A DNA stretch of 64,000 nucleotides from a bacterium (GCA_030704665.1 JAUYID010000009.1:793702-857701), one strand, 5' to 3'; positions 3,649 through 41,407 are shown, counted from the first letter of the stretch. Program-made: numbers and translations. The notes: a model not told the origin generated them from the letters alone.

Positions 3649-4014
3649 CTAACCAGCCTCTTGTAGAACGTGGTTAATTAACCCCGGCAACCCCCTTGCC
3701 AGGGAATAATAGACCACTTTTTTCTTTCTTTTGGCACTCACCAAGTTGTAGTCTTTTAACAATCTTAATTGATGGGAAACCGCCGAAATATTTAGTCTGA
3801 CCACGTCTGCCAGATCTCCAACACAGAGCGAGTCTTTTTTCCAGAGCACCAAAAGAAGTTGCAGCCTAGTTTCTGAATTTAGTAAATTGATCCACTCTGC
3901 AGATTCTTTAATTTTTGAACTGAAAATTTCCTTTTGCAAACTTTGGAGGGTAGAGGGGGGAGAGCTATGGGGCTTCGTTCCAAAAGTCCGGGCGGGTTTA
4001 ACAATTTTTCTCAT
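3649..4014 (-). CDS. ArsR/SmtB-family winged-helix transcriptional regulator
   Basis: 121 aa. The segment LLLVLWKKDSLCVGDLADVVRLNISAVSHQLRLLKDYNLV matches an ArsR HTH. Confidence 0.6.
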   Translation of the reverse strand: MRKIVKPARTFGTKPHSSPPSTLQSLQKEIFSSKIKESAEWINLLNSETRLQLLLVLWKKDSLCVGDLADVVRLNISAVSHQLRLLKDYNLVSAKRKKKVVYYSLARGLPGLINHVLQEAG

Positions 4015-4103
4015 CTTTAATTATTATAGTTGAATGTTTATTCAAATGACAGTGGGGAAGAGTGCTAAGTTAAAGTTTTTTTAATAGTGAATTTAATTTG
4101 TGT

Positions 4104-5033: not shown

Positions 5034-5066
5034 AGTTTTAACTATACCCTAAGTTTAGAATTTTAA

Positions 5067-6182: not shown

Positions 6183-6183
6183 T

Positions 6184-6750: not shown

Positions 6751-7040
6751 TTTCTTTTTAGCCTCCCCAAAATCAAGCTAGTAAACAAAGAGGTCAGCGC
6801 GCCAAGACCAAAAATAAAGAAGAGCTGGGCACCTTCAACGACCGTGTGAACATTCCTGTCTTTGGAAAAGAAAAACCAAAAGTAAGTAGCAGCGAGAAGA
6901 ATTGTTCCCAATTTTAGGGCCAGCCCCTCTGACAAAAAACTAAATCTTGCCTTTGGTAGACAAGCGGCAGCGAGAAGAATCACCCCAAGGCCGGAAAAGA
7001 AGCTAAAAAGAAAGTAATCAATGACAAAAATCTGGTCCAT
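6741..7040 (-). CDS. small hypothetical membrane protein
   Basis: 99 aa with 3 predicted TM helices. It overlaps the PAP2 gene by 10 nt. Confidence 0.35.
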   Translation of the reverse strand: MDQIFVIDYFLFSFFSGLGVILLAAACLPKARFSFLSEGLALKLGTILLAATYFWFFFSKDRNVHTVVEGAQLFFIFGLGALTSLFTSLILGRLKRKWL

Positions 7041-7060
7041 TTTTTGGAGTTTACTTTAAA

Positions 7061-7288
7061 TTAACTGCCTTGTGAAGTTGAAGAACCTTTTCTTCCCCAA
7101 GCAATTTGGTTCCAAACTCTTTCGTGAACGAAATACAGGGCGAAGCCGAGAACAAGTTTGGCAACGGCAAACTTCGAAGCAAAATCAAACTCTCTAGTGA
7201 TAAGGTAAGCCAGAGAAAAGTCGGTCAAAAAGATGATGCTTCGCCAAGAAACGGATTTTAAAATGGAACGGGTCGAGGTTTCGTGCAT
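7061..7288 (-). CDS. DUF2061-like small membrane protein
   Basis: 75 aa. SWRSIIFLTDFSLAYLITREFDFAS ... YFVHERVWNQIAWG resembles the DUF2061 pattern. Confidence 0.45.
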   Translation of the reverse strand: MHETSTRSILKSVSWRSIIFLTDFSLAYLITREFDFASKFAVAKLVLGFALYFVHERVWNQIAWGRKGSSTSQGS

Positions 7289-7290
7289 AA

Positions 7291-8919: not shown

Positions 8920-8961
8920 CTGATTTTAGTATAGCAGTAGCGGTCAGGCAGCTGCAACGCT

Positions 8962-10236
8962 TCAGGGGCTGATAACGAGATAAAAATCAGAGACATTTGA
9001 CTCCAGTAATCCAGTCTCAAGACTGTCCCCTAGTCTTTGGAAAAATTCAAAAGAATCGGCTCGGGCAAGAAACTCATCCGGGTTCAATCCTAAGTCCTCA
9101 GCTCGTTTTAACGAAGTTTCATCTCCGACTGCTCCGGCAGAATCAGAGTGATCGTGACCATCGCTTGCTGCCGCAATGATGACTTGGCCCTCTTTAATAT
9201 TTTTTAGGTTAGCCAAAACTAGATGTTGGTTGCGTCCTCCCACTCCGGCAGCAGCCACTTCAACACTACTCTCACCACTAGCCAGTAGTACTTCTCCGGC
9301 TTGAGCGCTGTTAAGTAATTTCAAGCCTAATTCCCCTGCTTCACCCTCCAAATCCGTTCCCAAAATTTTTATTTTCCAACCTAGTTCCCCGGCCTTGCGG
9401 GCCATCGCGCCGACGACACTGGCCGGGTCTTGCATGATTATGTTGCTGACTTTCTCAAAATACTTTTCTTCTTTTGGTGTTTCGGAAAATTCCAGTCCCT
9501 CCAATTTCAATTTATCCCAGACCCCGCGTTTTTTTAATATCTTTTCTGCTTCCTCAGAAGTCGACTGATCCAAAACCGTGGCTCCCGAAGCAATAGTAGA
9601 AAGATCGTTCCCCGGTACATCGGAAAAAATCAAAGAGACTATTTTTGCTCGGTAAGCAAGTTTAGCCAGTCGACCTCCCTTTATCTCCGAGAGGTGTTTT
9701 CTGACGACATTGAGCTGCCGGATATCAGCTTCTGCCTCCATCAAGGCTTTTGAGATCTCGGCTTTTCTCTCAACTGAAATTTTGTAAGGAGCAGTCATCA
9801 GAGCTGATCCTCCCCCAGCAATAACAAAAAGGACTAGGCTTTTTTCATTACTTTCTTTGAGTAGTTGAATGATTTTCTCGGTTGCGGCTACATTTTTTTC
9901 ACTCGGTTCGGGATGAGTTCCAGCGAAAGGTTGAACTTTCTTTAGCGCACCGACCCGGACATCAATAACTACCCCATCCTTCAATCTGTCTTCAAGTAAA
10001 TTTTCTAGTTCGACCACCGCGTCAAAAGAACCTTTGCCAATACCGAATAAATAAATATATTCTTAATCGTTTAAATTGAGGGTCTCGCTTTTTATCTTGA
10101 GTAAGTCTCCCTCCAACCGCACGTTTTTTTTGATGACGTCTTTGGTCCGAACTCCTTCGAAACCTGCTTCGATGATTTCCAGTGCAGTTTTTCGGATCCG
10201 AGTAGTGGCCAAAGAAGAAAAGTTTTTGATAATCAT
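8962..10236 (-). pseudogene. glycerate 2-kinase (MOFRL family) interrupted by a single in-frame TAA at 10063-10065
   Basis: The N-terminal piece ends ...LRLEGDLLKIKSETLNLND then TAA, and continues in the same frame EYIYLFGIGKGSFDAVVELENLL through the MOFRL body to ...YLVISP. I checked frame continuity by hand. Confidence 0.65.
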
Positions 10237-10250
10237 TTTCCGGCTAAAAA

Positions 10251-10574
10251 CTAAAAAAACTTGCTCACTTCGAAGTTTATTTTTCCGACGATTGGCACCC
10301 GCTTTTTGCGCCCCCTTAGCGAAGAATACATACCATAAACCCAAAGAATAAAGAAGGAGAAATAGATCATTGTCGCAAAAATACTTCGGAAAGGGTCTGG
10401 GAAAAGTCGAACCGTTATCAAAGCCAAAGCCCCGCTACCGATCAGCAAAAAGGACTGATTACCATAAAAAACAGCATAGTCAGATTTTTTGGCTAGAGCA
10501 AAAGGAAGGAAAAAAAGTACCCAAGCGGAAAAAGCAATAATTTTCTCTTTGGTCGTCGGTTTTTCCTGTTCCAT
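10251..10574 (-). CDS. small hypothetical membrane protein
   Basis: 107 aa with 3 TM helices. Confidence 0.4.
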   Translation of the reverse strand: MEQEKPTTKEKIIAFSAWVLFFLPFALAKKSDYAVFYGNQSFLLIGSGALALITVRLFPDPFRSIFATMIYFSFFILWVYGMYSSLRGRKKRVPIVGKINFEVSKFF

Positions 10575-10620
10575 TCTTTGGTTTTAAGTTTAGTTGAAGA
10601 GAGAGTCAATTACAATTGGA

Positions 10621-10923
10621 TCAAAAGGTAGCGGCGTCGGAATCGTTGGCTTTCAGGTCTGTTTCAGCACTATCAAGGTCAGTAGTATCCAAAGTGTTCA
10701 AAGCTTTGTCGAGATCGGCGCTGGAATTGACCGTCGGAACTGCACTTGAAGTCGATGTTGGGGTGTTGGTTGATTTAGCTGGTTGGTTGTAAACAAAGAA
10801 GTAATAAACCACAGCAGCGAGCAAAAGTACCGCTACTAGCAAACCAAGTAGCAAGGCAGTCTTGTTGTTTGTTTTTTTTGGTTCTGCGCTCACTGTCGGC
10901 TTCTGAACTTGATTTTCGTCCAT
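10621..10923 (-). CDS. hypothetical membrane-anchored protein
   Basis: 100 aa with a single TM helix and an S/T-rich extracellular tail. Confidence 0.4.
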   Translation of the reverse strand: MDENQVQKPTVSAEPKKTNNKTALLLGLLVAVLLLAAVVYYFFVYNQPAKSTNTPTSTSSAVPTVNSSADLDKALNTLDTTDLDSAETDLKANDSDAATF

Positions 10924-10925
10924 GG

Positions 10926-11555
10926 TTAGTTAGAACTTTCTGCTGAGCTAGTTGCTTCTTTTTCAGCTTTTCCAATTGCACTCTTAACCCCAACGATAAG
11001 ATCCCTGATTGATCTGCGGTAGCTCTTGAGTGCTTTGACCCCGGCACGAAAGTCATCTTTGAAATTTTGAATTTGTCCTTTGGGATCAGTACCACTGCAG
11101 TCCAAACTTTCAGCAGATTGGCTTGCCGCGTCCAGTGCAGTTTGGGCGAGAGCCTTTTTCTCGGTAATAGTGTTTTTTAGATCATCATAGTTGGGAACGG
11201 TGATCCCTCTAGGTAAGACTTTGTCGGTGTAAAAGGTTTCAACCCGAGTCGCGATCAAGCCAAAAATTTCAAACTGCCTCTCGGCCCGCTTGACTAGTCT
11301 CTCCGAGCGGTTGATGATAATATTTTTTCTGGTTTCACAAACTCTGAGTTTGACCGCGTCAAGTTTTTCTTTGTGACGGGCCGAGCGAGTGGCGATACGG
11401 TCTTCCCGTTCTTGTTCAAACTCCTTGATCCTACGCTCAATCCTATCTTTTAGGTCGTGATCCTCAGGATCGTCTTTCCCTTCCTTGGCAAAAACAGGAG
11501 TAAGTGAAGTAACTACAAACAGTGAAGAGGTGAGGAGGAAAAGAAACTTTCTCAT
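10926..11555 (-). CDS. hypothetical secreted coiled-coil protein
   Basis: 209 aa with a signal peptide (MRKFLFLLTSSLFVVTSLTPVFA) and a charged helical body. Confidence 0.5.
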   Translation of the reverse strand: MRKFLFLLTSSLFVVTSLTPVFAKEGKDDPEDHDLKDRIERRIKEFEQEREDRIATRSARHKEKLDAVKLRVCETRKNIIINRSERLVKRAERQFEIFGLIATRVETFYTDKVLPRGITVPNYDDLKNTITEKKALAQTALDAASQSAESLDCSGTDPKGQIQNFKDDFRAGVKALKSYRRSIRDLIVGVKSAIGKAEKEATSSAESSN

Positions 11556-11631
11556 TGATAATCACTCTATCTCATTTGGCAAATTTTGTCAAAAAGAGCT
11601 TTCTTAAGAAGAGTTGAAAGGCGTCGGCAGA

Positions 11632-12198
11632 TTAACGTGACTTTACATTCATATACCTACGCAAACAAAGGAAGGTCATCCCAAATTCAAAAATAACTAA
11701 ATATAACGGGTACAAGTAGCCGGATAACTGAGATTTATCCGCGCCCAAAAAAGCAAGGGCCGAAGCTACCGCAAAAAACAACCAAAACAAAATATCCTCA
11801 TCCTTCGGGTCTTCAAAAACCTTTTTGTAGGTAGGAATTCCACCAATGAAGTGGGCGAGCAAACCAATTGATAAATTTAAAAGTGGGAGTTTTGTAAACA
11901 ACCAAATGCCTAAACTAATAATTAATAAAAGGCTAGCAATAAGTTCCGTCGGACCAAATGTTTTTTTAGATTTTCTCAAGGACAAAATAAGTACGATAGA
12001 ACTACCGAAAAGTCCCAATCCAGCCAACAATATTACTGAAAAACTGTTTTTCAAAGCAACAACACTGGCAAAGGCATTGACAGATAAAAGTAACCAAACA
12101 ACTCTACTGTAGATACTCGGATAGTATTTGTTCTGAAAAATTGATTTTATGCCAACGTAGTAAGAAGCAGCTACAAACAAACCTATGAGAAAGTTCAT
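11632..12198 (-). CDS. hypothetical integral membrane protein
   Basis: 188 aa with 5-6 TM helices. Confidence 0.5.
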   Translation of the reverse strand: MNFLIGLFVAASYYVGIKSIFQNKYYPSIYSRVVWLLLSVNAFASVVALKNSFSVILLAGLGLFGSSIVLILSLRKSKKTFGPTELIASLLLIISLGIWLFTKLPLLNLSIGLLAHFIGGIPTYKKVFEDPKDEDILFWLFFAVASALAFLGADKSQLSGYLYPLYLVIFEFGMTFLCLRRYMNVKSR

Positions 12199-12241
12199 AA
12201 ACTTAGTATATCAGCTGCGGTTGGGGAGTGAATTATTGATT

Positions 12242-12315
12242 TGGCTCGGGGGCAGGGATTCGAACCCCGATAAGCAGATCCAGAATCTGCTGTCCTACCG
12301 TTAGACGACCCCCGA
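12242..12315 (-). tRNA. tRNA-Gln (anticodon CUG)
   Basis: Minus-strand sequence tcgggggtcgtctaacggtaggacagcagattctggatctgcttatcggggttcgaatccctgcccccgagcca. It has a 7-bp acceptor stem, anticodon stem gcaga/tctgc with loop ttCTGga, a GGTTCGAATCC T-arm and an encoded CCA. Confidence 0.8.
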
Positions 12316-12432
12316 AAGTGAATGTATTTTACCAGATTGCCACTCCAGCCTCAAATGCTTTAGAATTTATTTATCTTAAAATTTATTCGAAGAAATTGGA
12401 AAAAACTAATTGGGTTACTAGTAATTGCGCTT

Positions 12433-13284
12433 GTGCTTGGGTATTTAGCATTTTCTTTGTTTGCCGCCCATACTCTCACCAAACCACTGAGTCGTTATTT
12501 GGACAAGTCGCCAAAATTAATTTCCGAAAAATATGAGGATATAAATTTCACCACGGAAGATGGTTTAAAACTAACCGGCTGGCTTTTAAAGCCGCAAAAT
12601 CAAAGTGAAAAACTAATCATCTTTGTTTCTGGTCTACGGGGCAATCGTACTGATGAAGGCTACGACACGGTCAGAATTTCTCAAGAACTACTGGCCAAAG
12701 GCTATAATATTTTACTTTACGATCCTCGCGCTCGTGGAGACTCAAAGGGAACTCGCTACACTCTAGGCGACAAAGAAGCCAAGGATGTGGTTGCTGCAGT
12801 TGCCTTTGCCAAAAACCGTGGTTTTCTCCCGGAAAAAATTGGTTTGGTTGGCAATTCCACAGGAGCAATCAGTCTTCTGATGGCAATTGATAGAGTCAAC
12901 GATGTAGGGGCGGTTGTAATTGACAGCGCAGCTGCTCGTTTTGGCCCGATCATAACCTCTCGTCTTTGGGTTGAAACTCACGTTCCTTTTTTCTTTGAGC
13001 CAGGTATTTTCTTTTTTGCCAAGACTTTTTTTGGGGCAGATTTTGCCGCAATCAAACCGATCGAAAAAGTAAAACTTGTTCCTAGCCGAAAATTCCTCTA
13101 CCTTCACACCACCAACGACCACTCGGTTTTACCAAAAGAAAGCGAGGAACTCTTGGCCAGTTCCAACTCAGGTAGTAAACTTGTTCTCTTTCCCGACGGA
13201 GGACACATCGAAACTTACAAAAAGAACCCGGCTCTGTATCGAGACCAGGTTTACAAATTTTTGGACGAAGAGCTCGGCCCGTAG
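12433..13284 (+). CDS. alpha/beta-fold hydrolase (S9/dienelactone-hydrolase-like), N-terminal membrane anchor
   Basis: 283 aa with the GNSTGA nucleophile elbow (GxSxG) and downstream Asp/His (PDGGHIE). A GTG start is assumed, and an in-frame upstream hydrophobic stretch has no ATG. Confidence 0.65.
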   Translation: MLGYLAFSLFAAHTLTKPLSRYLDKSPKLISEKYEDINFTTEDGLKLTGWLLKPQNQSEKLIIFVSGLRGNRTDEGYDTVRISQELLAKGYNILLYDPRARGDSKGTRYTLGDKEAKDVVAAVAFAKNRGFLPEKIGLVGNSTGAISLLMAIDRVNDVGAVVIDSAAARFGPIITSRLWVETHVPFFFEPGIFFFAKTFFGADFAAIKPIEKVKLVPSRKFLYLHTTNDHSVLPKESEELLASSNSGSKLVLFPDGGHIETYKKNPALYRDQVYKFLDEELGP

Positions 13285-30992: not shown

Positions 30993-31457
30993 TTAGTTTA
31001 GTTCCACTTTGTATTGCAAGGCTTCGGCGAGATGCGAGGGGGTAATTTTTTCTTTGGCATCAAGGTCAGCAATCGTTCGCGAGACTTTAAGAATACGGTA
31101 AAAACTGCGGGCGGAAAGATTCATTTTGTTGATCGCCGCCGAAATGAGTTCTCGACACTCTGGCTCAAGACGACAAAATTCTTTGACTTGTCTCGCAGTC
31201 ATCTCGGCGTTAGAAACGATACCAGTACTCTTGAAACGTTTTTCTTGCTCGTTTCTGGCTAGTTGCACTCTTTTCCGGATTTGGGCCGAGCTTTCACCAG
31301 CTGGTATATCAAGCAAATCTTTGGTTTTCACAGCCGGAACACTGATGTGCAAGTCAATACGGTCGAGAATCGGCCCGGAAATTCTCTTTTGATAGCGGGT
31401 TACTTGTCCGGGCAAACAGGTGCATTCTTTGGTTGTATCACCAAAGAAACCGCAGGG
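30993..31457 (-). pseudogene. comM: comM (Mg-chelatase-like YifB/ComM) 3' portion, separated from its 5' portion by the inserted element
   Basis: Minus-strand translation PCGFFGDTTKECTCLPGQVTRYQKRISGPILDRIDLHISVPAV...AEALQYK matches the ComM C-terminal region. It is in the same reading frame as the upstream recombinase gene (ORF-track 30993-33284). Confidence 0.8.
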
Positions 31458-31478
31458 ATGTGGCTTTACATAAAGACC
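31456..31478. repeat. attL-type junction: core GG (31456-31457) plus element arm with TACATAAAGACC
   Basis: By direct reading, the host comM sequence ends at 31455, then the core GG, then ATGTGGCTTTACATAAAGACC. Confidence 0.55.
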
Positions 31479-33149
31479 TACAGAGGCTCCAGAGTCGTAT
31501 TTATAAACAATCTCGACCCGACCTCTGAAAATAAACACCTTATCAATAATCCTTCCGACCATTTCCTTCCGAACCATGGGTTCAGTCGCCGCTTCAAACA
31601 TTTCAAGTAACTGCCTTAAAGTTGAAAGAACATCCTTTCGTTTTACCTGGTCGTTAATTAGAAATTGTATTTTTTCAACTTCTTGTTCTAACAGAGCTCT
31701 TTCATTTTTTTGTACTTCGTACCGCCTATCAAACACATCGCGAATTATTCCTCCATCCTCAAACAGTTCTACCAACCTATCAACTTTACTATCGTATTCC
31801 TGTAGGTGTTTTTGGGCAACCTTAAAATGAGCCGTTAGTGATCCAGTTGATTGTGCTTCCTCCAAAGACAATTCGTTACTAACATCCTCCTGTCGGAGCT
31901 CTTTCAACCTGGTTTTCAATTTTGTGAGCACGAGATGTTCCAGTTTTGGGGCCGCCAAAAGATGTCTTCTACAAGTATTACCTCTGACGTAACTACTATC
32001 AATGAAGTCGCTTCTTACATAAACCTGACCATTCGGTTTCTTAGCCCTTCTGGTTTTCAGATAGGCCCTCTTTTGGCAATCACCGCACCATATTTTTCCA
32101 GCCAGCAATGAATCCGAAGCAAGTTGTCTACCAGTAACTTTAGATCTTGATTTCACCCTGTCTTGAATCTTATTGAAAGTAGCCTCATCAATAATACTCG
32201 GAACGTTTTTAGCTTCTTGTTGTACCCACCTATCAGGAGCAGTAAATACTCGTTTTTGTTTGCCGCTAACTGTTTTTCCTTGTTTGTATTTACTTCCGAG
32301 TTTCCGACCCCATCTCACTTTCCCAACCAAAGCGGGGTTGGTTAAAATGTTTTTTATTGTCGCAGACGACCAACTCCCTGGGCCCAGTTTACCTGTCGGG
32401 GAAGGGATTTTATCTCCAACAAGACTAAAAGCAATTTTACGAAAACTTCCACTAGAGAGGTATTCATCAACAATACGTTTAGCCACAACCGCTTTTGAAG
32501 GAATTAACTCAAAATGCCAATCGTACACCTGCTTACCATCAGCAAGAGTTTCAATCTTTGGTACTTTTTTAAGCCAAAAGGGAGCGAACACCATCTTGCC
32601 TCTTTCGGCTAATCCTCTGAATCCAGACCTAACTCTTTCACCCCGTGTTACGTTCTCTTGTTGGTCTTGGACTCCCGCTAAGGCGGCTGTCATCTGTTGG
32701 ACATAATTACCACCCCAGTAGTAATCAGTAGGTGTAATTGGTTCAACCGCAACGTTTCTCATGTAAACTTGGATGTTTGCAGTTTGAGCTAATCTCCTGT
32801 GAAACCTAAGAATTAAATCTGCTTCCCTTGCTAACCTTGATGAGTGGTAAACAAGTACGATGTCAAACTTTCGGAGTAAGCTATTTAGCGGTTTTACATC
32901 CTCCAGTAAACTTGCGGCTGCGGGTCTGTCTTCAAACTCAATATCACCGAATACCCCTGGCTCGATGTAGGGCTCAACAAAAGCCCAACCTCTCTGTTCA
33001 CAAATATCTTTTGCCCATTTTACTTGGTCAAAAATTGAAACTTTTTCCTCGGCAGCTTGGTCTAACGTGCTAACACGGGCATAAACCACCGCTTTTAAGG
33101 TCGGGGCTTGTATTGTCGGTCTGTAGCCTAAATTTAGTCCATCCTCCAT
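31456..33149 (-). CDS. large serine recombinase (integrase); ORF continues without a stop across attL into the comM 3' portion
   Basis: Has the N-terminal resolvase catalytic motif AVVYARVSTLDQ, a recombinase domain, a zinc ribbon (CGDCQ...C..C) and a coiled-coil. The recombinase part is about 560 aa with a likely start at MEDGLNLG. Confidence 0.8.
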
Positions 33150-33173
33150 CTGTCTTTGCTCCTTATTAACTAT

Positions 33174-33186
33174 GTGGCGGCCACAC
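33174..33186. repeat. 13-bp perfect palindrome TGTGGCGGCCACA (copy 1), between the AlpA-like gene and the recombinase start
   Basis: A GC-rich palindrome in an AT-rich context. An identical copy lies at 39155-39167. Confidence 0.5.
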
Positions 33187-33190
33187 AGCT

Positions 33191-33367
33191 TTAGTGTTGG
33201 GACATAAATTCCAACAAGTCGTCTTTCTTGAATCGGAGAGTCCGACCGTGTTTGTAACCCTTGAGTCCTTTTTTCAGCCACCAACGTCGGAGTGTTTCGT
33301 AATGAACACCCAACATGGTAGCGGCTTCTCGAAGGGTTAGGAATTCTTTTTCGACTGGTTTAGACAT
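33191..33367 (-). CDS. AlpA/Xis-like HTH_17 small DNA-binding protein (candidate excision/regulatory factor)
   Basis: 58-aa ORF not in the track: MSKPVEKEFLTLREAATMLGVHYETLRRWWLKKGLKGYKHGRTLRFKKDDLLEFMSQH, which matches the AlpA / excisionase HTH pattern. It sits immediately upstream of the integrase. Confidence 0.6.
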   Translation of the reverse strand: MSKPVEKEFLTLREAATMLGVHYETLRRWWLKKGLKGYKHGRTLRFKKDDLLEFMSQH

Positions 33368-33395
33368 TTTGATTACTCCTTAATTAAATAATACA

Positions 33396-33590
33396 TCACT
33401 TGTCAATGCTGTTATCTACTTGTTTACTAGCCTCAAGAGCCGACAGAGCTAGCTGTGTGAAATTTCGTTTTCCGACCTGATTAAAATTATCAACCACGTC
33501 TTGAGACGAGCAGACAGAACACCCACACCCAGATTTTGCCAAGTCGTCAAGTGTCTGCCGCTTCTTATCTACCAAAGTCCCTCGTCTCAT
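33396..33590 (-). CDS. hypothetical small protein (Cys-rich)
   Basis: 64 aa containing CGCSVC. It overlaps the upstream NTPase gene by 4 nt, which is operon-like. Confidence 0.35.
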   Translation of the reverse strand: MRRGTLVDKKRQTLDDLAKSGCGCSVCSSQDVVDNFNQVGKRNFTQLALSALEASKQVDNSIDK

Positions 33591-35062
33591 AACCCCCTCC
33601 TGCTTAACTCTTGGTACGAAGTCTCTAGTTCTTGACCGATTAAATTACGATTTGGATTATCATCAGGAGCGGCTTCATATTGTTCTAACAAAGTGTTAAT
33701 CCTGGACTGTAACTCCTCAACCGATAATTTTTTAACGTCAAAGTTTACCCCACCATGCCACTCACTATATTGTTTTGACGTTTCCTTACCTGTCGAAACA
33801 TTGGGTCGGGTAGTAGGGTAAGTTAGTTTTTCTCTTTTGTTTAGAGGGTTTTCCTCCTGATAAATCAGCCCAGAAGTCTCTAAAACAGGAATGATTTGCT
33901 GTCTTAGCTGCCAGTCCGCCAAGTGTCGCTGGTAAACTTCAAAGTGCTTTTTCAGGATTTCGTTTCTTGATACCCCAAGTTTTACCCCACCCCCTAACTC
34001 ACTATATTTATCGGTATAGGCGGGGACGATCACTTCCTTAAAAAGGTTAAAGACATAAGGTGGTAAGTTTAACTCCTGGCTTTCCGAAATCGAATCCCAA
34101 AGCTTGAATGCTTCCCGAACATCGTCCTCGTTGGCAACAAGTAATCCGTTTTGTCTTTCCCTGAACCACAAGTTAAGCAACGCAAAGGTTTTTATCAGGT
34201 TGATGATGCGGCCGACATCCCGTTGGTGGCGGGGTTTGTAAATCTTAATCCTGTCGGAAAGCAGTTTTTGAATCAGTTGCGGCGAAGCGATCTTGACGTC
34301 TTTGATCCCAGCTTGCTTGATAGCCTTGATACGGTCTTTTAGCATTTTTCTGACTGGGTCGAGGTCTAGGCTGCTTTGGTACTCGGTAACGTTTGATTCT
34401 CGTTTAATCCGCTCCGATATAGCTTCACGGATTTTTTCTTGATTCGTTTCTGGTGAAAGTAACAGGAACCTCGTGGTTTCTTGCTCATCGAGGTTTAGCC
34501 CAACTGTGCAAAAGATGACCACAGGGAAACCGATCAATTTTATATTCTTTGTCCTTAAACCCTGCCGTTGATTCTTGTCCGTAATTTTCAGTTCGATTAC
34601 CTTTTTGTCGTGTGAAAGTAGCGGCCTTAAATGTTCCAACAGTTGCGTGTGGGGTTGGTCTAGGAATATCAAAATTTTACGTGACAAGTCAGCCCTGTAA
34701 CTTTTAGACTCTGGGTCGTAAGAGCTTTGATCGTGAAAGAAAGCTGTTGGTGAACAATAACCAACTTCAACCACATCCTCCTCTGGAAACAATTTGGCAA
34801 TCTCCATCGGGATAAAGCTTTTGCCGCTTGAGGACGGTGCGTTGAAGGAGATGTTTAGCTGAGCGTCTTCCGTGTAACAAGAGAGCTGGGTCAGGAAAGT
34901 AATAAGCTTGTTTACCTCGTCCTTTTTAATCGTCAGACCAAGTATTTTTATCAGTTCTTGGCTAGTGATGGGCCCAAACTGGGACACGTCAATTTGTTCC
35001 TCTTGCTTCTGCTCAACCTCTTGTTCGGCTTTATCAATCAGATCAAAGGCTTCGTCGCTCAT
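33587..35062 (-). CDS. P-loop NTPase, phage/plasmid primase-helicase (SF3/D5-like) C-terminal-type
   Basis: 491 aa with a Walker A motif FNAPSSSGKS and a downstream Walker B-like IFLDQ. It is in an operon with the CHC2 zinc-finger protein. Confidence 0.55.
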   Translation of the reverse strand: MSDEAFDLIDKAEQEVEQKQEEQIDVSQFGPITSQELIKILGLTIKKDEVNKLITFLTQLSCYTEDAQLNISFNAPSSSGKSFIPMEIAKLFPEEDVVEVGYCSPTAFFHDQSSYDPESKSYRADLSRKILIFLDQPHTQLLEHLRPLLSHDKKVIELKITDKNQRQGLRTKNIKLIGFPVVIFCTVGLNLDEQETTRFLLLSPETNQEKIREAISERIKRESNVTEYQSSLDLDPVRKMLKDRIKAIKQAGIKDVKIASPQLIQKLLSDRIKIYKPRHQRDVGRIINLIKTFALLNLWFRERQNGLLVANEDDVREAFKLWDSISESQELNLPPYVFNLFKEVIVPAYTDKYSELGGGVKLGVSRNEILKKHFEVYQRHLADWQLRQQIIPVLETSGLIYQEENPLNKREKLTYPTTRPNVSTGKETSKQYSEWHGGVNFDVKKLSVEELQSRINTLLEQYEAAPDDNPNRNLIGQELETSYQELSRRGL

Positions 35063-35610
35063 GCCAGCCTCCTAACCGCGACCTTGAACTCCAAGTTTTC
35101 CAACCTCATCAGTAGATCAAGGCTGTCTCCACCCTGGTTGCAGCCGAAGCAGTACCAAGAGTTGTTGTGGGTGTAAATTGTGAAGGATGGGGTTTTTTCT
35201 TGGTGAAGTGGGCAAAGTCCCACAAATCTACTTCTGCTCACTTTTCTCAGTTTTCCAGCGAAAAGTTCTTCTATGGGGATTTGTCGGGCGGTTTCAACTT
35301 TCCTTTCCCAATCTTTGTTCTCACCTTTGTTGAGAAGTAGCATGGCACGATCAATGCTTTTACGTTCTTTTTTGATCCTGGCTAGCCATGAGGCGGTTCG
35401 ATAGGTCGCTATCCTAGTAAGGAACCAACTAACGAACTCATCATACTTTTGGTAGCTTCTTTTTGCGGCGGCGACTTTCAAGTCCAGCAGGGCTTGGGTT
35501 TTTTCCTCATCCTCATTCAGACTCCAGGCCTTTTCATTCAGGACAGGAACGGCGTCTTTACCAAAGACTTCGACCGCTTCCAACAAGGAGACTTTATTAC
35601 TTTCCATCAC
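35059..35610 (-). CDS. CHC2-type (DnaG-like) zinc-finger protein, replication initiation module
   Basis: 183 aa. The C-terminal CPLHQEKTPSFTIYTHNNSWYCFGCNQGGDSLDLLM matches the DnaG zinc-binding domain CPFH-EKTPSF...CFGCG-GG. The finger is unusually C-terminal. Confidence 0.6.
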   Translation of the reverse strand: MMESNKVSLLEAVEVFGKDAVPVLNEKAWSLNEDEEKTQALLDLKVAAAKRSYQKYDEFVSWFLTRIATYRTASWLARIKKERKSIDRAMLLLNKGENKDWERKVETARQIPIEELFAGKLRKVSRSRFVGLCPLHQEKTPSFTIYTHNNSWYCFGCNQGGDSLDLLMRLENLEFKVAVRRLA

Positions 35611-35797
35611 CGTCTCCTTCCTCAGAGTTTGGGACTAGAACATAACCCTTGCCTCCACAGCCTTGGCAGATTTTTGAACCAAACTTGACCGTACCGAAGC
35701 CATTGCAAACCACACACCGAAACGGGACGAACTTTGGTCTAACTTGGACGTTTTCAGGGTTGTCGTTATTCTGTCTGTCCATCTTTTCCTCCAACAA
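35597..35797 (-). CDS. small zinc-ribbon protein
   Basis: 66 aa with CVVC...CQGC. It is the first gene of the leftward operon. Confidence 0.4.
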   Translation of the reverse strand: MLEEKMDRQNNDNPENVQVRPKFVPFRCVVCNGFGTVKFGSKICQGCGGKGYVLVPNSEEGDGDGK

Positions 35798-35946
35798 AAA
35801 AACAGGCCTAAAATTCTCATTTTTATTTTCATTCTTATTACTTGAGAATTTTTCGGTCTGCCTTTGGCAAACTGTGGGGGGATTTACGAGCCCTTGTCCT
35901 CTTTATTTATTTTTACTTTTATAAGTATACCATAGTGTCGCCATCC

Positions 35947-35975
35947 TTGCTTATGCTTGGTAGAAGTGCGATAAT
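35947..35975 (+). promoter_or_regulatory. sigma70-like promoter (TTGCTT-17-GATAAT) for the thermonuclease gene, short leader
   Basis: The -35 is at 35947-35952 and the -10 at 35970-35975. The ATG is at 35987 with no SD, so the transcript is probably near-leaderless. Confidence 0.35.
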
Positions 35976-35986
35976 CTGGCCATCTT

Positions 35987-36886
35987 ATGCCAAAAATTAA
36001 CGCCGAGGAAATAAGAAAACTGTTTGAAGGTAAAAAGAAATTCTTTACTATCCCTATGGCCATAATCTTGGGTCTAGGTTTACTTCCAATCACAATCGGG
36101 TTAGGTATCGGCTACTTAGCTTACAAAAAGATTCCCAACACTACCCAAAGAAATGTTGCCCTGGGAGTCATTGCTTTAGTTACTTTGGGAGCCACCTTTG
36201 CTTGGTTTAACATGTCCTCCACCGAGCCTGAACCTCAACCTAGCCAACAAACAACACAATCAAATGAAACCAAAGAGAAAGCAAAGATTGAGAATGTCTT
36301 TAAGGTCACTAAGGTAGTTGACGGCGACACTATTGAAATTGAAGGTGGGAAACACGTCCGCTACATCGGGATTGATACTCCAGAAACAGTTGATCCCAGA
36401 AAAGAAGTCCAATGCTTTGGCCAGGAAGCCTCCGACAAAAACAAAGAGATGGTCGAAGGGAAAGAAGTTAGGCTTGAGAAAGATGTTTCCGAAACTGACA
36501 AATACGACCGACTCCTCCGTTACGTTTATGTTGGCGATACTTTTGTTAATGACAGCCTTGTTAGGCAAGGTTACGCTAGAGCTTCGTCTTACCCACCAGA
36601 CGTAAAACACCAAGACCAGTTCACCGAAGCAGAGAAGGAGGCTAGGGAAAACGATCGAGGCCTGTGGTCAGAATGTGAGAAAAAAGAGGAAGCAGCACCC
36701 CCAACAACAACCCCACCGCCAACAACTAGTGGGAATTGTGATCCTTCCTACCCTGATGTTTGTATTCCGAAGTACCCACCTGACCTAGACTGCGGCGACA
36801 TTACTTACAGGAAGTTTAAGGTCTTACCTCCTGACCCACATGGGTTTGACGGAAAGGACAACGACGGGGTCGGTTGTGAAAGTTGA
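35987..36886 (+). CDS. membrane-anchored secreted thermonuclease (SNase-like) with C-terminal Excalibur Ca-binding domain
   Basis: 299 aa with a TM helix. The SNase core is VVDGDTIEI...RYIGIDTPE...RLLRYVY and the C-terminal Excalibur motif is DGKDNDGVGCE. Confidence 0.75.
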   Translation: MPKINAEEIRKLFEGKKKFFTIPMAIILGLGLLPITIGLGIGYLAYKKIPNTTQRNVALGVIALVTLGATFAWFNMSSTEPEPQPSQQTTQSNETKEKAKIENVFKVTKVVDGDTIEIEGGKHVRYIGIDTPETVDPRKEVQCFGQEASDKNKEMVEGKEVRLEKDVSETDKYDRLLRYVYVGDTFVNDSLVRQGYARASSYPPDVKHQDQFTEAEKEARENDRGLWSECEKKEEAAPPTTTPPPTTSGNCDPSYPDVCIPKYPPDLDCGDITYRKFKVLPPDPHGFDGKDNDGVGCES

Positions 36887-37197
36887 TGGATTGGGGAATT
36901 TTTTTAATCGTCTTATTCTTTGGTTGGATAATAATAGCCTTCATTAACGACTCAAGATTTTCCAAAGATCATAAAATTCTAAGTAAGCTAACGATAGTAA
37001 TTGTGGGTATTGCTGCCCTTGTAATAGGTTTGGCTTGGGCAGAGGAGTCCCCACGAACTCCAACAAGAACTAGAAGTACCACACCTTACATTCAACAATC
37101 AGAACCAAGTGCACTCTGTCGAGATGGAACATTAAGTTACAGCTCCAATCGGCGGGGAACTTGCTCCCATCATGGCGGAGTAAGTGTTTGGTACTAA
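36883..37197 (+). CDS. DUF3761-domain membrane protein
   Basis: 104 aa with 2 TM helices. The C-terminal CRDGTLSYSSNRRGTCSHHGGV matches the DUF3761 signature. Confidence 0.55.
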   Translation: MMDWGIFLIVLFFGWIIIAFINDSRFSKDHKILSKLTIVIVGIAALVIGLAWAEESPRTPTRTRSTTPYIQQSEPSALCRDGTLSYSSNRRGTCSHHGGVSVWY

Positions 37198-37210
37198 TTA
37201 AGGAAATACT

Positions 37211-38311
37211 ATGACTGACGATGAGATTTTGAAATTAAGAAAAGAATACAAACTCCACGAAGTCGTTGAAGACAGACTGGTGAAGTTGTTTAAGGAACTT
37301 TCTCCAACGAACTACACCTTGAAAGAAGGGATTGGCCTTACAAGCGGCCGCACCGACACAAGCCACTATATCGGAGGCGGAAAAATAATTCACGTTGAGG
37401 TAATAGCCTCCGCCAACATGGTTGCTAAGGATTTACTTAATCTCCACCAGAGTGTCGCCGACGGTAAGGTTGTTGTGTTGATGGATGAGGAAATTGATCC
37501 AACAGTAACCAAGGAGTATTTTTCGGATCATGCCACCGACAGGTTTCCCAGACTTTCAATCAGCGAAGTTCTGGACGAGGACAAGAAAGAGGCTGTTCTT
37601 GTAAAGCTAGCCGACATTGTCCAGGAAATTGACAAAACCACCGTTAAGTTCAAAAACGAATCACAGAAAAAGTTTGACCAATTCCTCAAGGACTTGAACC
37701 GACAAGGAGAGTTGATAACCTATGACTTCGGGTTTTTCCCTAGAAAAAATTTGGGGGTTTTCCAGAAACTCTCGGACGCAGAAAAACTCTATCACGAGCT
37801 AGACCCACTTGGATTTTCCGCCGCCGCAGGTCTTCATAGAGGGTATGGTTTATCGTGGGAGTTCGGGAACGACGGTAAGTTTTTGCGGTTAGGATACTCT
37901 GACAAGGACAACAACTTGATCCCCTTTGTCTCTGTTGGAGACTACGGTGAGGTAATTCACACCAGCTCCTACCACAAGGAGGGCTTTACCGAAATTCATA
38001 AACCTACACTCCTAAGCTTGTTGAATCCCGTAGTTGAATTTTACAAAGAGCTAGTCAAAAAGAAAGGCTACAAAGGAATGGTGGATGTAATCGCACACTT
38101 TAGCGGTTTCGAAGGTCTGAAGTGGGTAACTACCAATGACCCCGCCGCACTAATAATTAGAGGTAAAGCCTTCTACAGCGATGAAATTACTTGTCCAGTA
38201 TTCTCAATTACAGCAGAGGATTTGCAGAAGCCTGAGAAAGTCCAAAGTTTAATTGGTGAGATGCTCCTAGTCTTGGAGAGAAACAGCAATAAAATTCCTT
38301 GGAGCAGGTAG
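37211..38311 (+). CDS. hypothetical protein (element cargo, unknown function)
   Basis: 366 aa with a good SD (aaggaaatactATG). No domain recognised. Confidence 0.5.
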   Translation: MTDDEILKLRKEYKLHEVVEDRLVKLFKELSPTNYTLKEGIGLTSGRTDTSHYIGGGKIIHVEVIASANMVAKDLLNLHQSVADGKVVVLMDEEIDPTVTKEYFSDHATDRFPRLSISEVLDEDKKEAVLVKLADIVQEIDKTTVKFKNESQKKFDQFLKDLNRQGELITYDFGFFPRKNLGVFQKLSDAEKLYHELDPLGFSAAAGLHRGYGLSWEFGNDGKFLRLGYSDKDNNLIPFVSVGDYGEVIHTSSYHKEGFTEIHKPTLLSLLNPVVEFYKELVKKKGYKGMVDVIAHFSGFEGLKWVTTNDPAALIIRGKAFYSDEITCPVFSITAEDLQKPEKVQSLIGEMLLVLERNSNKIPWSR

Positions 38312-38397
38312 TATTCAGCACCTGCTATAATAAGTCAAACTGCCAGAATTACCTTACAAGCAAGTTAAAAGCTTGGTGTAAGTAGCGTAGCTACATT

Positions 38398-39021
38398 ATG
38401 AGACTAAAGATATTACTGGTGATTTTGGGTTCTCTGCTTCTTGCCTCTGGAATCTATCTCGGAATAAATAAATTTATACTTCAACCAAAAGAAAAAAGCC
38501 CTGTTGCTTCTGTTGTGGAAACCAAAGTGGCGACTGAGTCTGCCGAGCCAAAACCCGAAGGAAAGAAGGAGGACGCAAAAGCTCCAACAGGGGAAGTTTC
38601 GGGTGCGACTACAAATACTGTCCAGCTCCCAACACAACAGAATACACCTCCACTATCAGTACCAGATGAATCAGGCAAGATCGCTACTCTTAACAGCTTA
38701 ATTGAGAAACTAGTCGGTTTGGCTGTAAAAATATGGGCGGAGGACGAAAAAATTAAAGCAACTACTCAAGGTTGGTTTGCTGCTCTGGAAAATTGTAATT
38801 CCGATCCAATAATTCCCTATGCTGACTGCGTTGAACTAAAAAACACTTATTACTCAGCACTTCTAAACATATCCAATGCTGCAAGAAAGAGTTATTTGGC
38901 TGATTATCGCAATTACGAGGCCCAGGCTAACCAAATAAAGGCTTCGTGCTCCTCAGTCTGTCAAACTATTTGGAATGACTACATCCAAGCACTTCAAAAG
39001 GGTGGTATTCCTCAACCTTAA
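38398..39021 (+). CDS. hypothetical membrane-anchored protein
   Basis: 207 aa with an N-terminal TM helix, a charged linker and a Cys-containing C-terminal domain. Confidence 0.45.
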   Translation: MRLKILLVILGSLLLASGIYLGINKFILQPKEKSPVASVVETKVATESAEPKPEGKKEDAKAPTGEVSGATTNTVQLPTQQNTPPLSVPDESGKIATLNSLIEKLVGLAVKIWAEDEKIKATTQGWFAALENCNSDPIIPYADCVELKNTYYSALLNISNAARKSYLADYRNYEAQANQIKASCSSVCQTIWNDYIQALQKGGIPQP

Positions 39022-39154
39022 AACACTAAGCTGACCAAATACACCACTCCACCAATACAAACAGTTTTACCAGTCAGACAGGTTCGGCTGTGGACTAGAG
39101 ATGGCTAATTATGTGGTGTCCGCCGACCAACATCGTTAATCCTTATCCCTTGTG

Positions 39155-39167
39155 TGGCGGCCACATA
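39155..39167. repeat. 13-bp perfect palindrome TGTGGCGGCCACA (copy 2), between convergent genes downstream of terS
   Basis: Identical to 33174-33186. Confidence 0.5.
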
Positions 39168-39293
39168 TGGTTTAACCACCTTGACCAGGGAATTAGTAAA
39201 ATTTATATCGCGGATTTCTGTGGCACTTAACGGTTATATTTATTTTGTAACAAAGGGTGTGGTGGGGGTAGTTCGGGACTAACTGACTTGGTC

Positions 39294-39746
39294 TTAATTC
39301 ATCTTGGCCAACACTTGTCTCGTGTTTTCTTGTGTTTCGGCTAGTATCTGCTTTAACTCCTCAATAGTCTTACCCTCCAGCTCTTTGTGAAACTCTAAGT
39401 TAGCGTTGAGGTTTAAGTTCCTAGAGGCTGGGAAGCGGTCTTTTAGTTTGTTGACCATTTCGATTGCTTGCAAGGCGACGCTTGGTTTGGCTTGTCGGGC
39501 GTTCTTGAGACCTGCTTCAATTATCTGTCTGGTGGATTCATCAACATAAGTATCACTCAAACCCGCTCCTTCAAGCTGTTGTCGGATCGCTGTCAAGACG
39601 TGAGGTCTACCAAGATTTTTGTAGGCTTCGTTGTTGGCCTTCGTAATAGAGTACCCAGCCTTGCGAGCCGCCAGGCTTCCGTTGCCGTTAGCTTCACCGA
39701 CGTAGTATTTAACGAATTTTTCCTGCTTTAGTGTCAGCTTTTTCAT
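39294..39746 (-). CDS. phage terminase small subunit (Terminase_2 family)
   Basis: LTLKQEKFVKYYVGEANGNGSLAARKAGYS matches the terS (PF03592-type) N-terminal HTH LTPKQE-FC-EY...NATQAA-RAGYS. No terminase large subunit is present in the window. Confidence 0.7.
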   Translation of the reverse strand: MKKLTLKQEKFVKYYVGEANGNGSLAARKAGYSITKANNEAYKNLGRPHVLTAIRQQLEGAGLSDTYVDESTRQIIEAGLKNARQAKPSVALQAIEMVNKLKDRFPASRNLNLNANLEFHKELEGKTIEELKQILAETQENTRQVLAKMN

Positions 39747-39927
39747 ATTTAATCTTTTTGCATGGCCTTGCAACTTACCGCCTGGCAGGAAGTTAAGGAA
39801 CTTTACAACAGCCAGTCAAATTTCTACCCATATATAGTATAACTGACAAAGAATATAGTGAGTTAGATGGTGGAGTAAACAGATTTTAGGTTCAATAATA
39901 TAGTGAGTGGGGTGGTGGGGTAAACTT

Positions 39928-40287
39928 TTAGTTAGATTTTTCGACTTGCCAGTCCCCACCTTTAGTGTCGTAAATCACACAGTAACGTCCTTCGAAAGTA
40001 ACCGCCTTACCGCATTCCTGGCTAGAAATCGAAACGTAGCCGCCATTGGGAAACTCCATCTCAACAATTCTCTTATCCTCAACTGTTACTGCCAAGGTGT
40101 AGCAATTATCATTGTTTGGATTGTGAACCACGCAGACTCTTTGGTACTCAGTACCATCCCACCAAGGCTTATCGTAACTGATTCCAAAAGGCCACCAATG
40201 AAAAAAGAAAGCACCAATCAAGTAGAGGATTATTAGTCCCACTACTCCACCGCCTACTTCGTTTGTATGATTCTCGTCGTTTTCCAA
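39928..40287 (-). CDS. hypothetical membrane protein
   Basis: 119 aa with one TM helix and a Cys-containing C-terminal domain. It is the last gene inside the element's right end. Confidence 0.4.
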   Translation of the reverse strand: MENDENHTNEVGGGVVGLIILYLIGAFFFHWWPFGISYDKPWWDGTEYQRVCVVHNPNNDNCYTLAVTVEDKRIVEMEFPNGGYVSISSQECGKAVTFEGRYCVIYDTKGGDWQVEKSN

Positions 40288-40331
40288 TTAAACCTCCCTA
40301 GTCAATTATAACGCTTTTTAGGTGTCGGGAT

Positions 40332-40354
40332 GGTCTTTATGTATATCCTTAAGG
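40332..40354. repeat. attR-type junction: element arm GGTCTTTATGTATATCCTTAA plus core GG (40353-40354)
   Basis: This is the inverted counterpart of the left arm. The TTA at 40349-40351 is the reverse complement of a TAA that terminates the comM 5' fragment. Confidence 0.55.
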
Positions 40355-41407
40355 ACAAGGATTCGCCGCTGCAATCAAGACAAATTTGGCCGGAAAAGTC
40401 ACGTTGGTCGCTGCCCTCGACACCGTCACAAACCCATCTTCGAGAGGCTGGCGCAGTGCCTCGAGAACATTTCTCGGAAACTCCGGGAACTCATCAAGAA
40501 AAAGTACGCCGCGGTGTGACTGCGATATTTCTCCTGGTTTGGGATTGGCTCCACCACCAATGATACCCACACTACTCGCGGTGTGATGGGGACTACGAAA
40601 CTGTCTTTTTGTGACTAAACCACCGTTGACTCCGCCTAGAACAGAGAAGATTTTAGTAACTTCCACTGCTTCCGAAAAAGTCAAACGAGGCAGTATCGAA
40701 ACAAAAGTTCGTGCCAGTAGCGTCTTACCCGCCCCTGGTGGTCCTTTGAGTAGAACGTTGTGACCACCAGCAGCTGCAATCTCCAGTGCTCGTTTGGCTT
40801 GTTCCTGTCCTTTGACCTCTTTCATATCTAGTTCGAACTCTTCCTCAGGAGCAAAATCAAACTTTCTTGGTTTAAACGGGTTGATGGGTGAGACAGCAGT
40901 AAAATGATCAAAAACCTCCCGGATATTTTTCACTGGGAGTATTTTTACCTTCTCAACGACAGAAGCTTCAATTGCATTTTCGGTCGGGAGTATCAGAGAA
41001 TCAAAATTTTTTTCTTTGGCTAGTAGTGAGAGAAGCAGAGCTCCCTTGGTTGAGTTGACTGAGCCGTCAAGCGAAAGCTCACCAAAAATTAAGGTCTTGG
41101 CAATATCAGCTTCAAGTTGACCCGAAGAAAGCAAAATCCCCAAAGCAATTGGCAGGTCAAAACTTGGACCTTCCTTGGGCAAATCAGCTGGAGCAAGGTT
41201 GACCGTAATGCGTTTAGCGGGGAAATCAGCACCAACGTTTTTCAGAGCGGCCCGGACCCTCTCGCGAGACTCCTCAACCGCCTTGTCCGGCAAACCAACG
41301 ATTGTGAATGAGGGTAGCCCTTGAGAAGCAATATCAACTTCAATTGTTACCGGCACTGCTTCCAGGCCAACTAGAGAACCGGAGTGGATTTTGGATAGCA
41401 TTGCCAA
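40349..41407 (-). pseudogene. comM: comM (Mg-chelatase-like YifB/ComM) 5' portion, truncated by the insertion; ends NPCP followed by an element-derived TAA
   Basis: 352 aa with N-terminal Lon-like and ChlI AAA+ domains (Walker [18 protein letters not shown]). It ends exactly where the ComM zinc-finger PCPCG motif should continue. Confidence 0.85.

Follow-up and report, generated by a model that had tools for sequence, protein, structure and literature searches.

A serine-recombinase element with a lone terS gene in comM of a CPR bacterium, a candidate phage satellite

The DNA analysed here, referred to as the window, is one strand of 64,000 nt from a bacterial genome (GCA_030704665.1 JAUYID010000009.1:793702-857701), and all coordinates are window positions unless a locus is named. 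It contains an element of ~8,897 bp (31457..40353, bounds set by the reconstructed attachment sites) that splits the competence gene comM at the codons NPCP|CG and carries a large serine recombinase, a replication module built around a helicase, and a lone gene for a terminase small subunit (terS). The host is a Patescibacteria (Microgenomates/Woykebacteria-like) metagenome-assembled genome (MAG), represented by a 938-kb contig. Bacteria of the candidate phyla radiation (CPR) account for a large share of bacterial diversity and cannot be cultured on their own, and very little is known of their mobile elements; according to a preprint, it is not known if viruses infecting CPR or DPANN hosts have satellites (10.1101/2025.02.15.638363). 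It is very likely that the element is an intact integrative element of a helicase family described below, mobilised by its serine recombinase, and it provides a concrete candidate satellite with a defined attP and attB.

The comM insertion and its attachment sites

Read along the minus strand from attL, the element comprises orf119, terS, four genes on the opposite strand, a 66-aa CxxC protein, a CHC2 protein, the helicase, orf64, an HTH_17 protein and the recombinase. The two comM fragments flanking it both lie on the minus strand, ~8.9 kb apart. The N-terminal fragment (40349..41407, composed of 40352..41407 and a TAA at 40349-40351 that is supplied by the element) encodes 352 residues ending ...LIAAANPCP, with matches to Pfam ChlI and to Mg_chelatase profile positions 1-160, and is a 100% match to residues 1-352 of the reconstructed ComM. 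The C-terminal fragment (30993..31455) encodes 154 residues (CGFFGD...) matching Mg_chelatase positions 135-206 and Mg_chelatase_C. The junctions read ...AATCCTTGTCC|TTAAGG... and ...CCACATCC|CTGCGG..., and fusion of the two halves at the common CC (40353-40354 / 31456-31457) yields an open 505-aa ComM, which shares 70-73% identity over 99-100% of its length with intact ComM/YifB proteins of 500-506 aa, the named sources being Candidatus Woykebacteria and Levybacteria. Because the joined protein aligns end to end with intact relatives, the fragments are parts of one interrupted gene; the possibility raised in an earlier reading of this DNA (the first-pass annotation), that they stem from different paralogues, was examined and set aside on these grounds. 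The in-frame split of comM by an 8.9-kb insertion, proposed in the same annotation, is borne out by this reconstruction and by a syntenic relative (L088, with A2M-like, AI-2E transporter, DUF8173 and DUF3048 neighbours) in which comM is unbroken and the site is empty. The insertion probably disables comM, and control of comM by the element could be reversible. The GC content of the element is the same as that of its flanks.

Sequence, inverted-repeat and symmetry analysis located attL at 40332..40354, with the core CC at 40353-40354 and the element-side half-site TACATAAAGACC at 40332-40343, and attR at 31456..31478, with the core CC at 31456-31457 and the half-site GGTCTTTATGTA at 31467-31478, within the last recombinase codons. 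The reconstructed attP, GGTCTTTATGTA-aagccacat-CC-ttaaggata-TACATAAAGACC, consists of perfect 12-bp inverted repeats placed exactly symmetrically, 9 bp on each side of the CC core, and 17 of 24 positions are symmetric in attP versus 10 of 24 in attB. The junction sequences are GGTCTTTATGTAAAGCCACATCCTTAAGGATATACATAAAGACC for attP and GCGAATCCTTGTCCCTGCGGTTTCTTTGG for attB, and junction reconstruction shows the attB given earlier (aatccttgtCCctgcggtttc) to be correct. As reconstructed, attP has the anatomy typical of a serine-integrase site, and the features that define a serine-integrase element were all found, namely inverted-repeat half-sites flanking the 2-bp core of attP, lower symmetry in attB and a target that is restored exactly.

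The large serine recombinase (31458..33149, minus strand; ~564 element-encoded residues) carries the Pfam domains Resolvase, Recombinase and Zn_ribbon_recom, matches phrog_95 (E 1.6e-71) and contains the catalytic motif YARVSTLDQ in its translation, in agreement with its earlier identification as the integrase. Within the element its gene lacks a stop codon, and the integrated form runs through attR into the comM C-terminal fragment; the resulting open reading frame (ORF) has 763 codons (30993..33284, minus strand), of which the last 154 residues are ComM, and the public gene call is a single 718-aa protein with Resolvase and Mg_chelatase_C domains (30993-33149, minus strand). In the excised circle the recombinase would end ...KPHP-TAA, with the stop just past the core and contributed by the opposite element end. 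The C terminus of the integrase is therefore changed by integration, since attP sits in the last recombinase codons and the stop is supplied by the other element end. An integration tool could be built from the recombinase and its 50-bp sites.

Located 42 nt upstream of the recombinase gene is that of a 58-aa MerR/excisionase-type HTH_17 protein (33191..33367, minus strand; HTH_17 E 9e-14), which also matches phrog_66 (excisionase/regulator) and, weakly, MerR_1. The position of the AlpA-like helix-turn-helix protein noted in the first-pass annotation is confirmed by this gene; the AlpA assignment is not, as Phage_AlpA was absent from the Pfam families matching the protein at E <= 0.01. The HTH_17 protein is a candidate directionality factor or regulator, and no Stl- or CI-type repressor was found among the element proteins. 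A 33-nt repeat, 76% identical between its two copies and containing the palindrome TGTGGCGGCCACA, lies just upstream of the recombinase ribosome-binding site (33153-33185) and again in non-coding DNA downstream of terS (39133-39165); it could be an operator common to both places or a vestige of a duplication.

A second element in comM (L089; JGI Ga0172379_10003826, 170-13238), on a CPR-like contig and with a 43%-identical serine recombinase, came to light when metagenomes were scanned with the recombinase. The junction in L089 lies two codons further downstream (...NPCPCG-stop). It encodes homologues of the CHC2, CxxC and SNase proteins of the window element, together with Cro-like, Rep_O-like and FtsK_alpha-like proteins and a 1106-aa protein without assignment, and its layout differs, with the recombinase at the opposite end and in the opposite orientation. 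Judging from these two sequences, CPR genomes harbour a lineage of serine-recombinase elements that target comM. In Proteobacteria, mobile elements have entered comM recurrently and convergently, which has been read as a guard against removal by transformation (PMC4774983). The CPR insertions bear on the idea that elements disable transformation to escape deletion, in bacteria that are thought to depend on DNA uptake.

Could the element instead be a domesticated switch, whose programmed excision turns comM on in the manner of Bacillus skin/SPbeta or the Listeria comK phage and for which transfer is irrelevant? The possible precise in-frame restoration of comM, the difference in the recombinase C terminus between integrated and excised states, and the presence, in another genome, of a related element very near this comM position would all suit such a role. 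Against this, comM is intact in most related genomes, and the element has kept a full replication module and variable cargo that a pure switch would not need, which makes a switch very improbable.

The replication module, its family and a shared DNA motif

The 491-aa nucleoside triphosphatase of the element (33587..35062, minus strand) had been taken for a superfamily 3 (SF3)/D5-like protein; it is instead a minichromosome maintenance (MCM)-like AAA+ helicase with a C-terminal winged helix, and its structural matches include the Cch helicase of the staphylococcal cassette chromosome (SCC) mec element, SCCmec. It is the hallmark gene of the helicase family. Translationally coupled to it is the gene for the 183-aa CHC2 protein (35059..35610, minus strand), which overlaps the helicase start by 4 nt. 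The DnaG-type CHC2 zinc finger, whose presence in the replication module is confirmed here, occupies only the C-terminal 64 residues (120-183; Zn_ribbon_DnaG, E 5e-20), with TIGR01391 scoring far under its cut-off. No Toprim or other primase catalytic domain was detected in the element proteins. In most family relatives the helicase is fused to an N-terminal Toprim, and the family helicase is consequently regarded as a primase-helicase.

A census of GTDB, using one genome per species, revealed 188 species-genome loci encoding a relative of the helicase, mostly in Patescibacteria. The other carriers by MAG label, with labels and binning as given, are Margulisbacteria, Melainabacteria, Planctomycetota, Omnitrophota, Gammaproteobacteria and DPANN archaea; the DPANN labels are Woesearchaeota and Pacearchaeota (loci L006, L050, L052 and others, labels as given), with helicases there 55-65% identical. 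The ORFs of 80 fetched loci and of the window's own locus (L001), 81 in all, were clustered. A large serine recombinase is present in 65 of the 81, usually 1-5 genes downstream of the helicase. Judged by a helicase at least 55% identical to members and a serine recombinase within 5 genes downstream, the window element belongs to the family: its helicase is 58-66% identical to those of the 80 other loci and has its recombinase 3 genes downstream. The element thus leads to a widespread and highly conserved replicon family, with an embedded DNA signal and helicases 55-66% identical across labelled Patescibacteria, other phyla and DPANN, a level of conservation that appears unusually high for a mobile-element protein.

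The usual partners in the family are a DUF5659 protein and proteins of 65, 199 and 174 aa. The window element has none of these and no Toprim fusion; like L005 and L006, it encodes CHC2 as a protein on its own, and its recombinase belongs to another lineage than most of the family, with a match only in L015 (45%). Judged by its gene content, it is an atypical family member. Cargo upstream of the helicase in the family consists mainly of methyltransferases, restriction subunits, helicases, sigma factors and toxins. Some members (L005 2741-3301 and 8412-8711; L028, L030, L045) encode, 3-4 genes upstream of the helicase, proteins of sigma-70 type, one form of which has 99 aa and consists of region 2 alone. 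A literature search found no description of MCM/recombinase elements of CPR bacteria and no mention of DUF5659, and the helicase family is apparently a large, so far undescribed family of integrative elements.

The DNA signal is a motif of 23-29 nt, GTTTACCCCACC-N6-CTCACTATATT, also written ATAGTGAG-N6-GGTGGGGTA and TACCCCACC-N6-CTCACTAT, with four copies in the element and none in the rest of the window. Two copies (33743-33771 and 33980-34008, plus strand) are antisense to the helicase gene and lie in its 3' third, one on each side of the segment that codes for the winged helix. Two tandem copies (39852-39880 and 39897-39925, minus strand), 45 nt apart, are found 80-150 nt upstream of terS and on its strand. 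Throughout the family (L002-L081) the motif forms part of the sequence coding for the helicase C terminus; it is read there as N/Y-S-E-x-x-G-G-V, and its synonymous codon positions are frozen. The serine codon is AGT in 47 of 47 cases (17% elsewhere in the same genes), the first glycine codon GGT in 46 of 47 (21%), the second GGG in all 47 (16%) and the valine codon GTA in 43 of 47 (22%). Outside the helicase gene, 34 more copies were found at ~30 loci, inverted, nearly all 0.4-8.9 kb upstream and mostly intergenic; in L005 a full-length sigma gene adjoins the distal copy. A reversed-sequence control gave 0 matches. The window element follows the family pattern: the helicase gene contains two copies, and the two that precede terS are inverted.

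Scored as a promoter, the motif is sigma-70-like (TTTACC-16-TATATT), and it contains CTCACTATA, which equals the core of the T7 promoter, possibly by coincidence. Two simple readings were rejected: an outward promoter, as the distal copy adjoins the 3' ends of convergent cargo genes in many loci, and a promoter for an element-encoded sigma factor, as sigma genes occur in few loci only and in none of the viral contigs. The 17 specified bases occur in eight IMG/VR contigs (L091-L098), roughly as many as chance would give. Five of the seven independent viral instances also carry the unspecified flanking TT and A/T-T tail (TTTACCCCACC...CTCACTAT[AT]T), in two instances small, unrelated membrane proteins contain the motif read in the same frame (NSExSGGVK), and one contig (L098 9816-9879) has a face-to-face pair 18 nt apart. 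No family helicase was detectable in the fetched stretches of these contigs. Because distal copies abut convergent 3' ends and the viral pair is face to face, a protein-binding site is as likely as a promoter; the motif is possibly either, a binding site such as iterons for the winged helix recalling the ori/crr arrangement of phage P4. As two tandem copies precede terS, that gene appears to be wired into the regulation of the element.

The remaining genes were searched, like all element proteins, against Pfam, PHROGs, NCBIfam and PADLOC. An accessory block of four genes (35987..39021, plus strand) is oriented opposite to the rest of the element. It encodes a membrane-anchored SNase nuclease (35987-36886; Pfam SNase E 2.4e-28, PADLOC candidate SNc+LTD), a DUF3761 protein (36883-37197; Pfam E 9e-11), and orf366 (37211-38311) and orf207 (38398-39021), both without matches. 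The window SNase has a Cys-rich C-terminal tail and is followed by the DUF3761 protein (35987-37197), and a membrane-anchored SNase recurs as cargo in the window, L011, L017, L033, L060, L070 and L089. A secreted nuclease on an element that disrupts a transformation gene may bear on DNA scavenging or on competition between elements. The minus strand further encodes the 66-aa protein with two CxxC motifs, a zinc ribbon (35597..35797), the small Cys-containing orf64 (33396..33590; no matches) and orf119, the first gene inside attL (39928..40287), an ORF without a match in any of the four databases. A defence identity for the unmatched genes was rejected, PADLOC returning only the candidate SNase family. 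Among the element proteins no terL, portal, capsid, tail, holin, endolysin/lysis or head-tail connector match was found in Pfam, PHROGs or NCBIfam, in keeping with the reported lack of terL, capsid, tail and lysis genes.

The lone terS and the satellite reading

The terS gene (39294..39746, minus strand; 150 aa from its ATG, with the ORF reaching 39773) encodes an SPP1/SF6 G1P-type DNA-binding domain and a helical C-terminal half. TerS scored 46.3 bits against Terminase_2 (gathering cut-off 26.1 bits), covering only profile positions 1-56 of 141, and the match to phrog_51 is likewise partial. A profile built from TerS and four homologues matches the SF6/SPP1 G1P DNA-binding domain (PDB 4zc3, 2cmp and 3zqp; E 3e-11 to 1.5e-10), and the top Foldseek PDB matches of the TerS model are all small terminases, the full-length SF6-like 3zqq followed by those of PaP3 and NV1, with a template modelling score (TM) of 0.93 for the DNA-binding domain. 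Confidence in the model is high over residues 1-60, and the predicted local distance difference test (pLDDT) score is 37-70 in the C-terminal half. The lone Terminase_2-type terS of the first-pass annotation therefore stands for its DNA-binding domain, by profile, PDB match and fold, and it passes the profile searches that the annotation had called for in that domain, with no profile support beyond it.

No terL is found downstream of the window terS. The two closest homologues of TerS (L086 and L087; 44-51% identity) share with it an invariant 14-residue block, AIEMVNKLKDRFPA, within a highly conserved central segment, and their genes too are followed by a gap and opposite-strand genes, with no terL. 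The window terS thus looks like a member of a consistently 'orphan' subfamily. One remote homologue, P0124, is a true phage terS that belongs to a terL-portal-capsid module and precedes terL by two short genes; isolate phages match the DNA-binding domain only, at 43-45% identity. Downstream of the window terS, a conserved non-coding stretch (39181..39268, minus strand) aligns with L087 1309-1396 (blastn, 74% over 89 nt, E 2.8e-8) and, over a shorter length, with L086 (about 640-700). It includes CCCC(T/C)ACCACACCCTT, with ATATAACCGTTAAG present in the window and L087 only, and is a candidate pac-like or regulatory cis site. As a phage pac site it was rejected for want of a match in IMG/VR, and as a structured RNA on a z-score of -0.3 with no Rfam match. 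The family motif is absent upstream of terS in L086 and L087, where neighbouring genes match nothing.

The terS and the serine integrase are phage-type genes, as might be left behind by a decayed prophage that had lost its terL, capsid, tail and lysis genes. A remnant of that kind was rejected as scarcely credible. All ORFs of the element are open, with no frameshifts and no pseudogene debris; attP has perfectly symmetric arms, and comM is restored exactly; the helicase-recombinase backbone is that of a conserved non-viral family; and the two closest terS homologues also lack terL.

A satellite life cycle can be outlined from the integrated state that is observed, in which comM is split and the ends of the element are an attL and an attR of canonical serine-integrase type. 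Precise excision by the recombinase, in which the HTH_17 protein would probably act as directionality factor, would restore comM and produce a circle in which the recombinase stop is back beside its gene. Replication of the circle would fall to the MCM-like helicase, possibly with its winged helix bound to the repeats of the family motif, and for priming the element would depend on the host or a helper, since it encodes no primase catalytic domain. At the weakest step TerS would bind element DNA and recruit the TerL of a co-infecting helper, and concatemers would enter helper capsids in the manner of phage-inducible chromosomal islands (PICIs) and Staphylococcus aureus pathogenicity islands (SaPIs). 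In a new cell the recombinase would insert the element into comM, which would also shield it from transformation-driven removal.

A helper-packaged life cycle of this kind is assigned a probability of roughly 0.45. It is supported by the gene order, in which integrase, regulator, replication genes, accessory genes and terS are arranged as in the PICIs outlined in PMC10085698, and by the occurrence of the family motif, with conserved flanks, in a few IMG/VR contigs. The PICI-like satellite of the first-pass annotation holds as a discrete element with PICI-like order, a lone terS and no structural genes; it does not hold for the replication module, nor was a helper, a pac site, a master repressor or a redirection gene found.

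A number of observations weigh against helper packaging. In neither the element nor the window was a helper phage, a terL, a pac site, a capsid-size redirection gene or a master repressor found, and no capsid-morphogenesis gene was matched in Pfam, PHROGs or NCBIfam, orf366, orf207 and orf119 having no match of any kind. At 8.9 kb, the element would have to be packaged as a concatemer or in a small capsid. TerS is supported over its N-terminal 56-60 residues only, and the half that would oligomerise and contact TerL is poorly modelled. A search of 1,402 ORFs of family loci with a TerS hidden Markov model found no terS in the other 80 loci, L089 has none, and IMG/VR and JGI metagenome contigs yielded neither a helper phage nor close terS relatives. 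No recurrent packaging, capsid or phage structural family was present among 131 representative cargo proteins from 61 of the other 80 loci. Relatives of the helicase were found neither in IMG/VR nor among INPHARED isolate phages, and PLSDB gave a single weak family match, on a Leptospira plasmid.

Because the recombinase is recurrent, no capsid family recurs in the sampled cargo and the family was not found in IMG/VR or isolate phages, the backbone is best described as a non-viral integrative replicon, and because the other 80 family loci lack terS, that gene is an accessory acquisition of the window element. The whole element may accordingly be no satellite but a plasmid-like integrative replicon, as proposed for staphylococcal SCC, that excises, replicates transiently and re-integrates, and spreads passively by transformation, vesicles or generalised transduction; terS would then be captured cargo, a DNA-binding regulator or an anti-phage packaging decoy. 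This is a serious contender, held at somewhat below even odds. It fits the wide distribution of a backbone that elsewhere comes without terS, both in the family loci and in the related comM-inserted L089, and without recurrent capsid genes in the sampled cargo, the absence of the family from the virus and phage collections searched, a cargo typical of defence and addiction islands, and a TerS verified for its DNA-binding domain only. The best NCBIfam matches of the recombinase, both sub-threshold, are to CcrB and CcrC, and SCCmec Cch is among the structural matches of the helicase. It accounts less well for a TerS whose length (150-159 aa), helical C-terminal half and top fold matches fit a full small terminase, whose 14-residue block is invariant at 45-51% overall identity, suggesting a conserved protein partner, whose orphan arrangement occurs in three independent contexts, and whose gene has its own tandem promoter-like motifs. 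The satellite reading in its most specific form, a first phage satellite of a CPR bacterium in which a helicase-family replicon captured terS and the motif is a phage-responsive or phage-shared signal coupling it to a helper, is considered rather unlikely.

Comparison with known systems

Phage P4 encodes one primase-helicase-winged-helix protein and has two separated sets of repeated cis sites (ori/crr), one of them in or next to the rep gene. In a similar manner, relatives of the element carry a Toprim-MCM-winged helix protein, and the motif copies lie in two separated places. P4 has an SF3 helicase, a tyrosine integrase, capsid-size redirection by Sid/Psu and no terS; no homology to P4 and no P4-type proteins (psu, sid, delta, alpha) were detected in the element.

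The claim of novelty made for a serine-integrase satellite in such genomes held in part. A literature search found no satellite of a CPR bacterium, but a serine integrase in a satellite is not new. The PICI-like elements (PLEs) of Vibrio are satellites that use a large serine recombinase for integration and excision and have their own replication initiator; they are ~18 kb in size, occur in Vibrio only and depend on the packaging machinery of ICP1. The Vibrio cholerae PLEs differ further from the element in that the PLE markers listed in PMC10085698 include no Terminase_2-type terS.

In the SatelliteFinder definition given in that source, a PICI comprises an integrase (tyrosine and serine types being exchangeable), an alpA, merR or stl regulator, a primase-replicase, a capsid-morphogenesis function that is optional in Type B, and terS (PMC10085698). 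By analogy, four of these five core functions are represented in the element. The integrase and the small terminase (as its N-terminal domain) are present, and the components that the definition forbids (tail, holin, portal and head-tail connectors) were not found; for the regulator there is a resemblance at superfamily level only, from the HTH_17 match (E 9e-14) and a weak MerR_1 match, with no Phage_AlpA match at E <= 0.01. The element resembles PICIs and SaPIs in size class, in a module order with a lone terS near the far end, and in having no tail, lysis or portal genes, whereas its replication module is not homologous to the PICI Pri-Rep. By these functional analogies to the published definition, it is PICI-like on paper, not a member of the PICI family. 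It differs from capsid-forming PICIs (cfPICIs) in having no capsid, portal or terL matches, and from the PICMIs (phage-inducible chromosomal minimalist islands), which PMC10803314 places next to fis in Vibrionaceae, in lying in comM of a CPR genome.

Among described architectures, that of SCC/SCCmec comes nearest, in which serine recombinases are paired with the MCM-like Cch helicase. The recombinase of the element scores 73.5 bits for CcrB and 55 bits for CcrC, against an NCBIfam cut-off of 900, and so falls outside these families. With respect to its insertion site, the element is comparable to the Aggregatibacter and AbaR comM islands, which are likewise inserted at an orthologous, not identical, conserved position of comM and whose insertion there has been proposed to prevent their loss through transformation (PMC4774983). 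Those islands occur in Proteobacteria and rely on Tn7-like machinery or on integrases of another lineage; in the two CPR examples, the window and L089, a serine recombinase acts at the NPCPCG codons, and the CPR bacteria join the lineages whose comM is a target of mobile elements.

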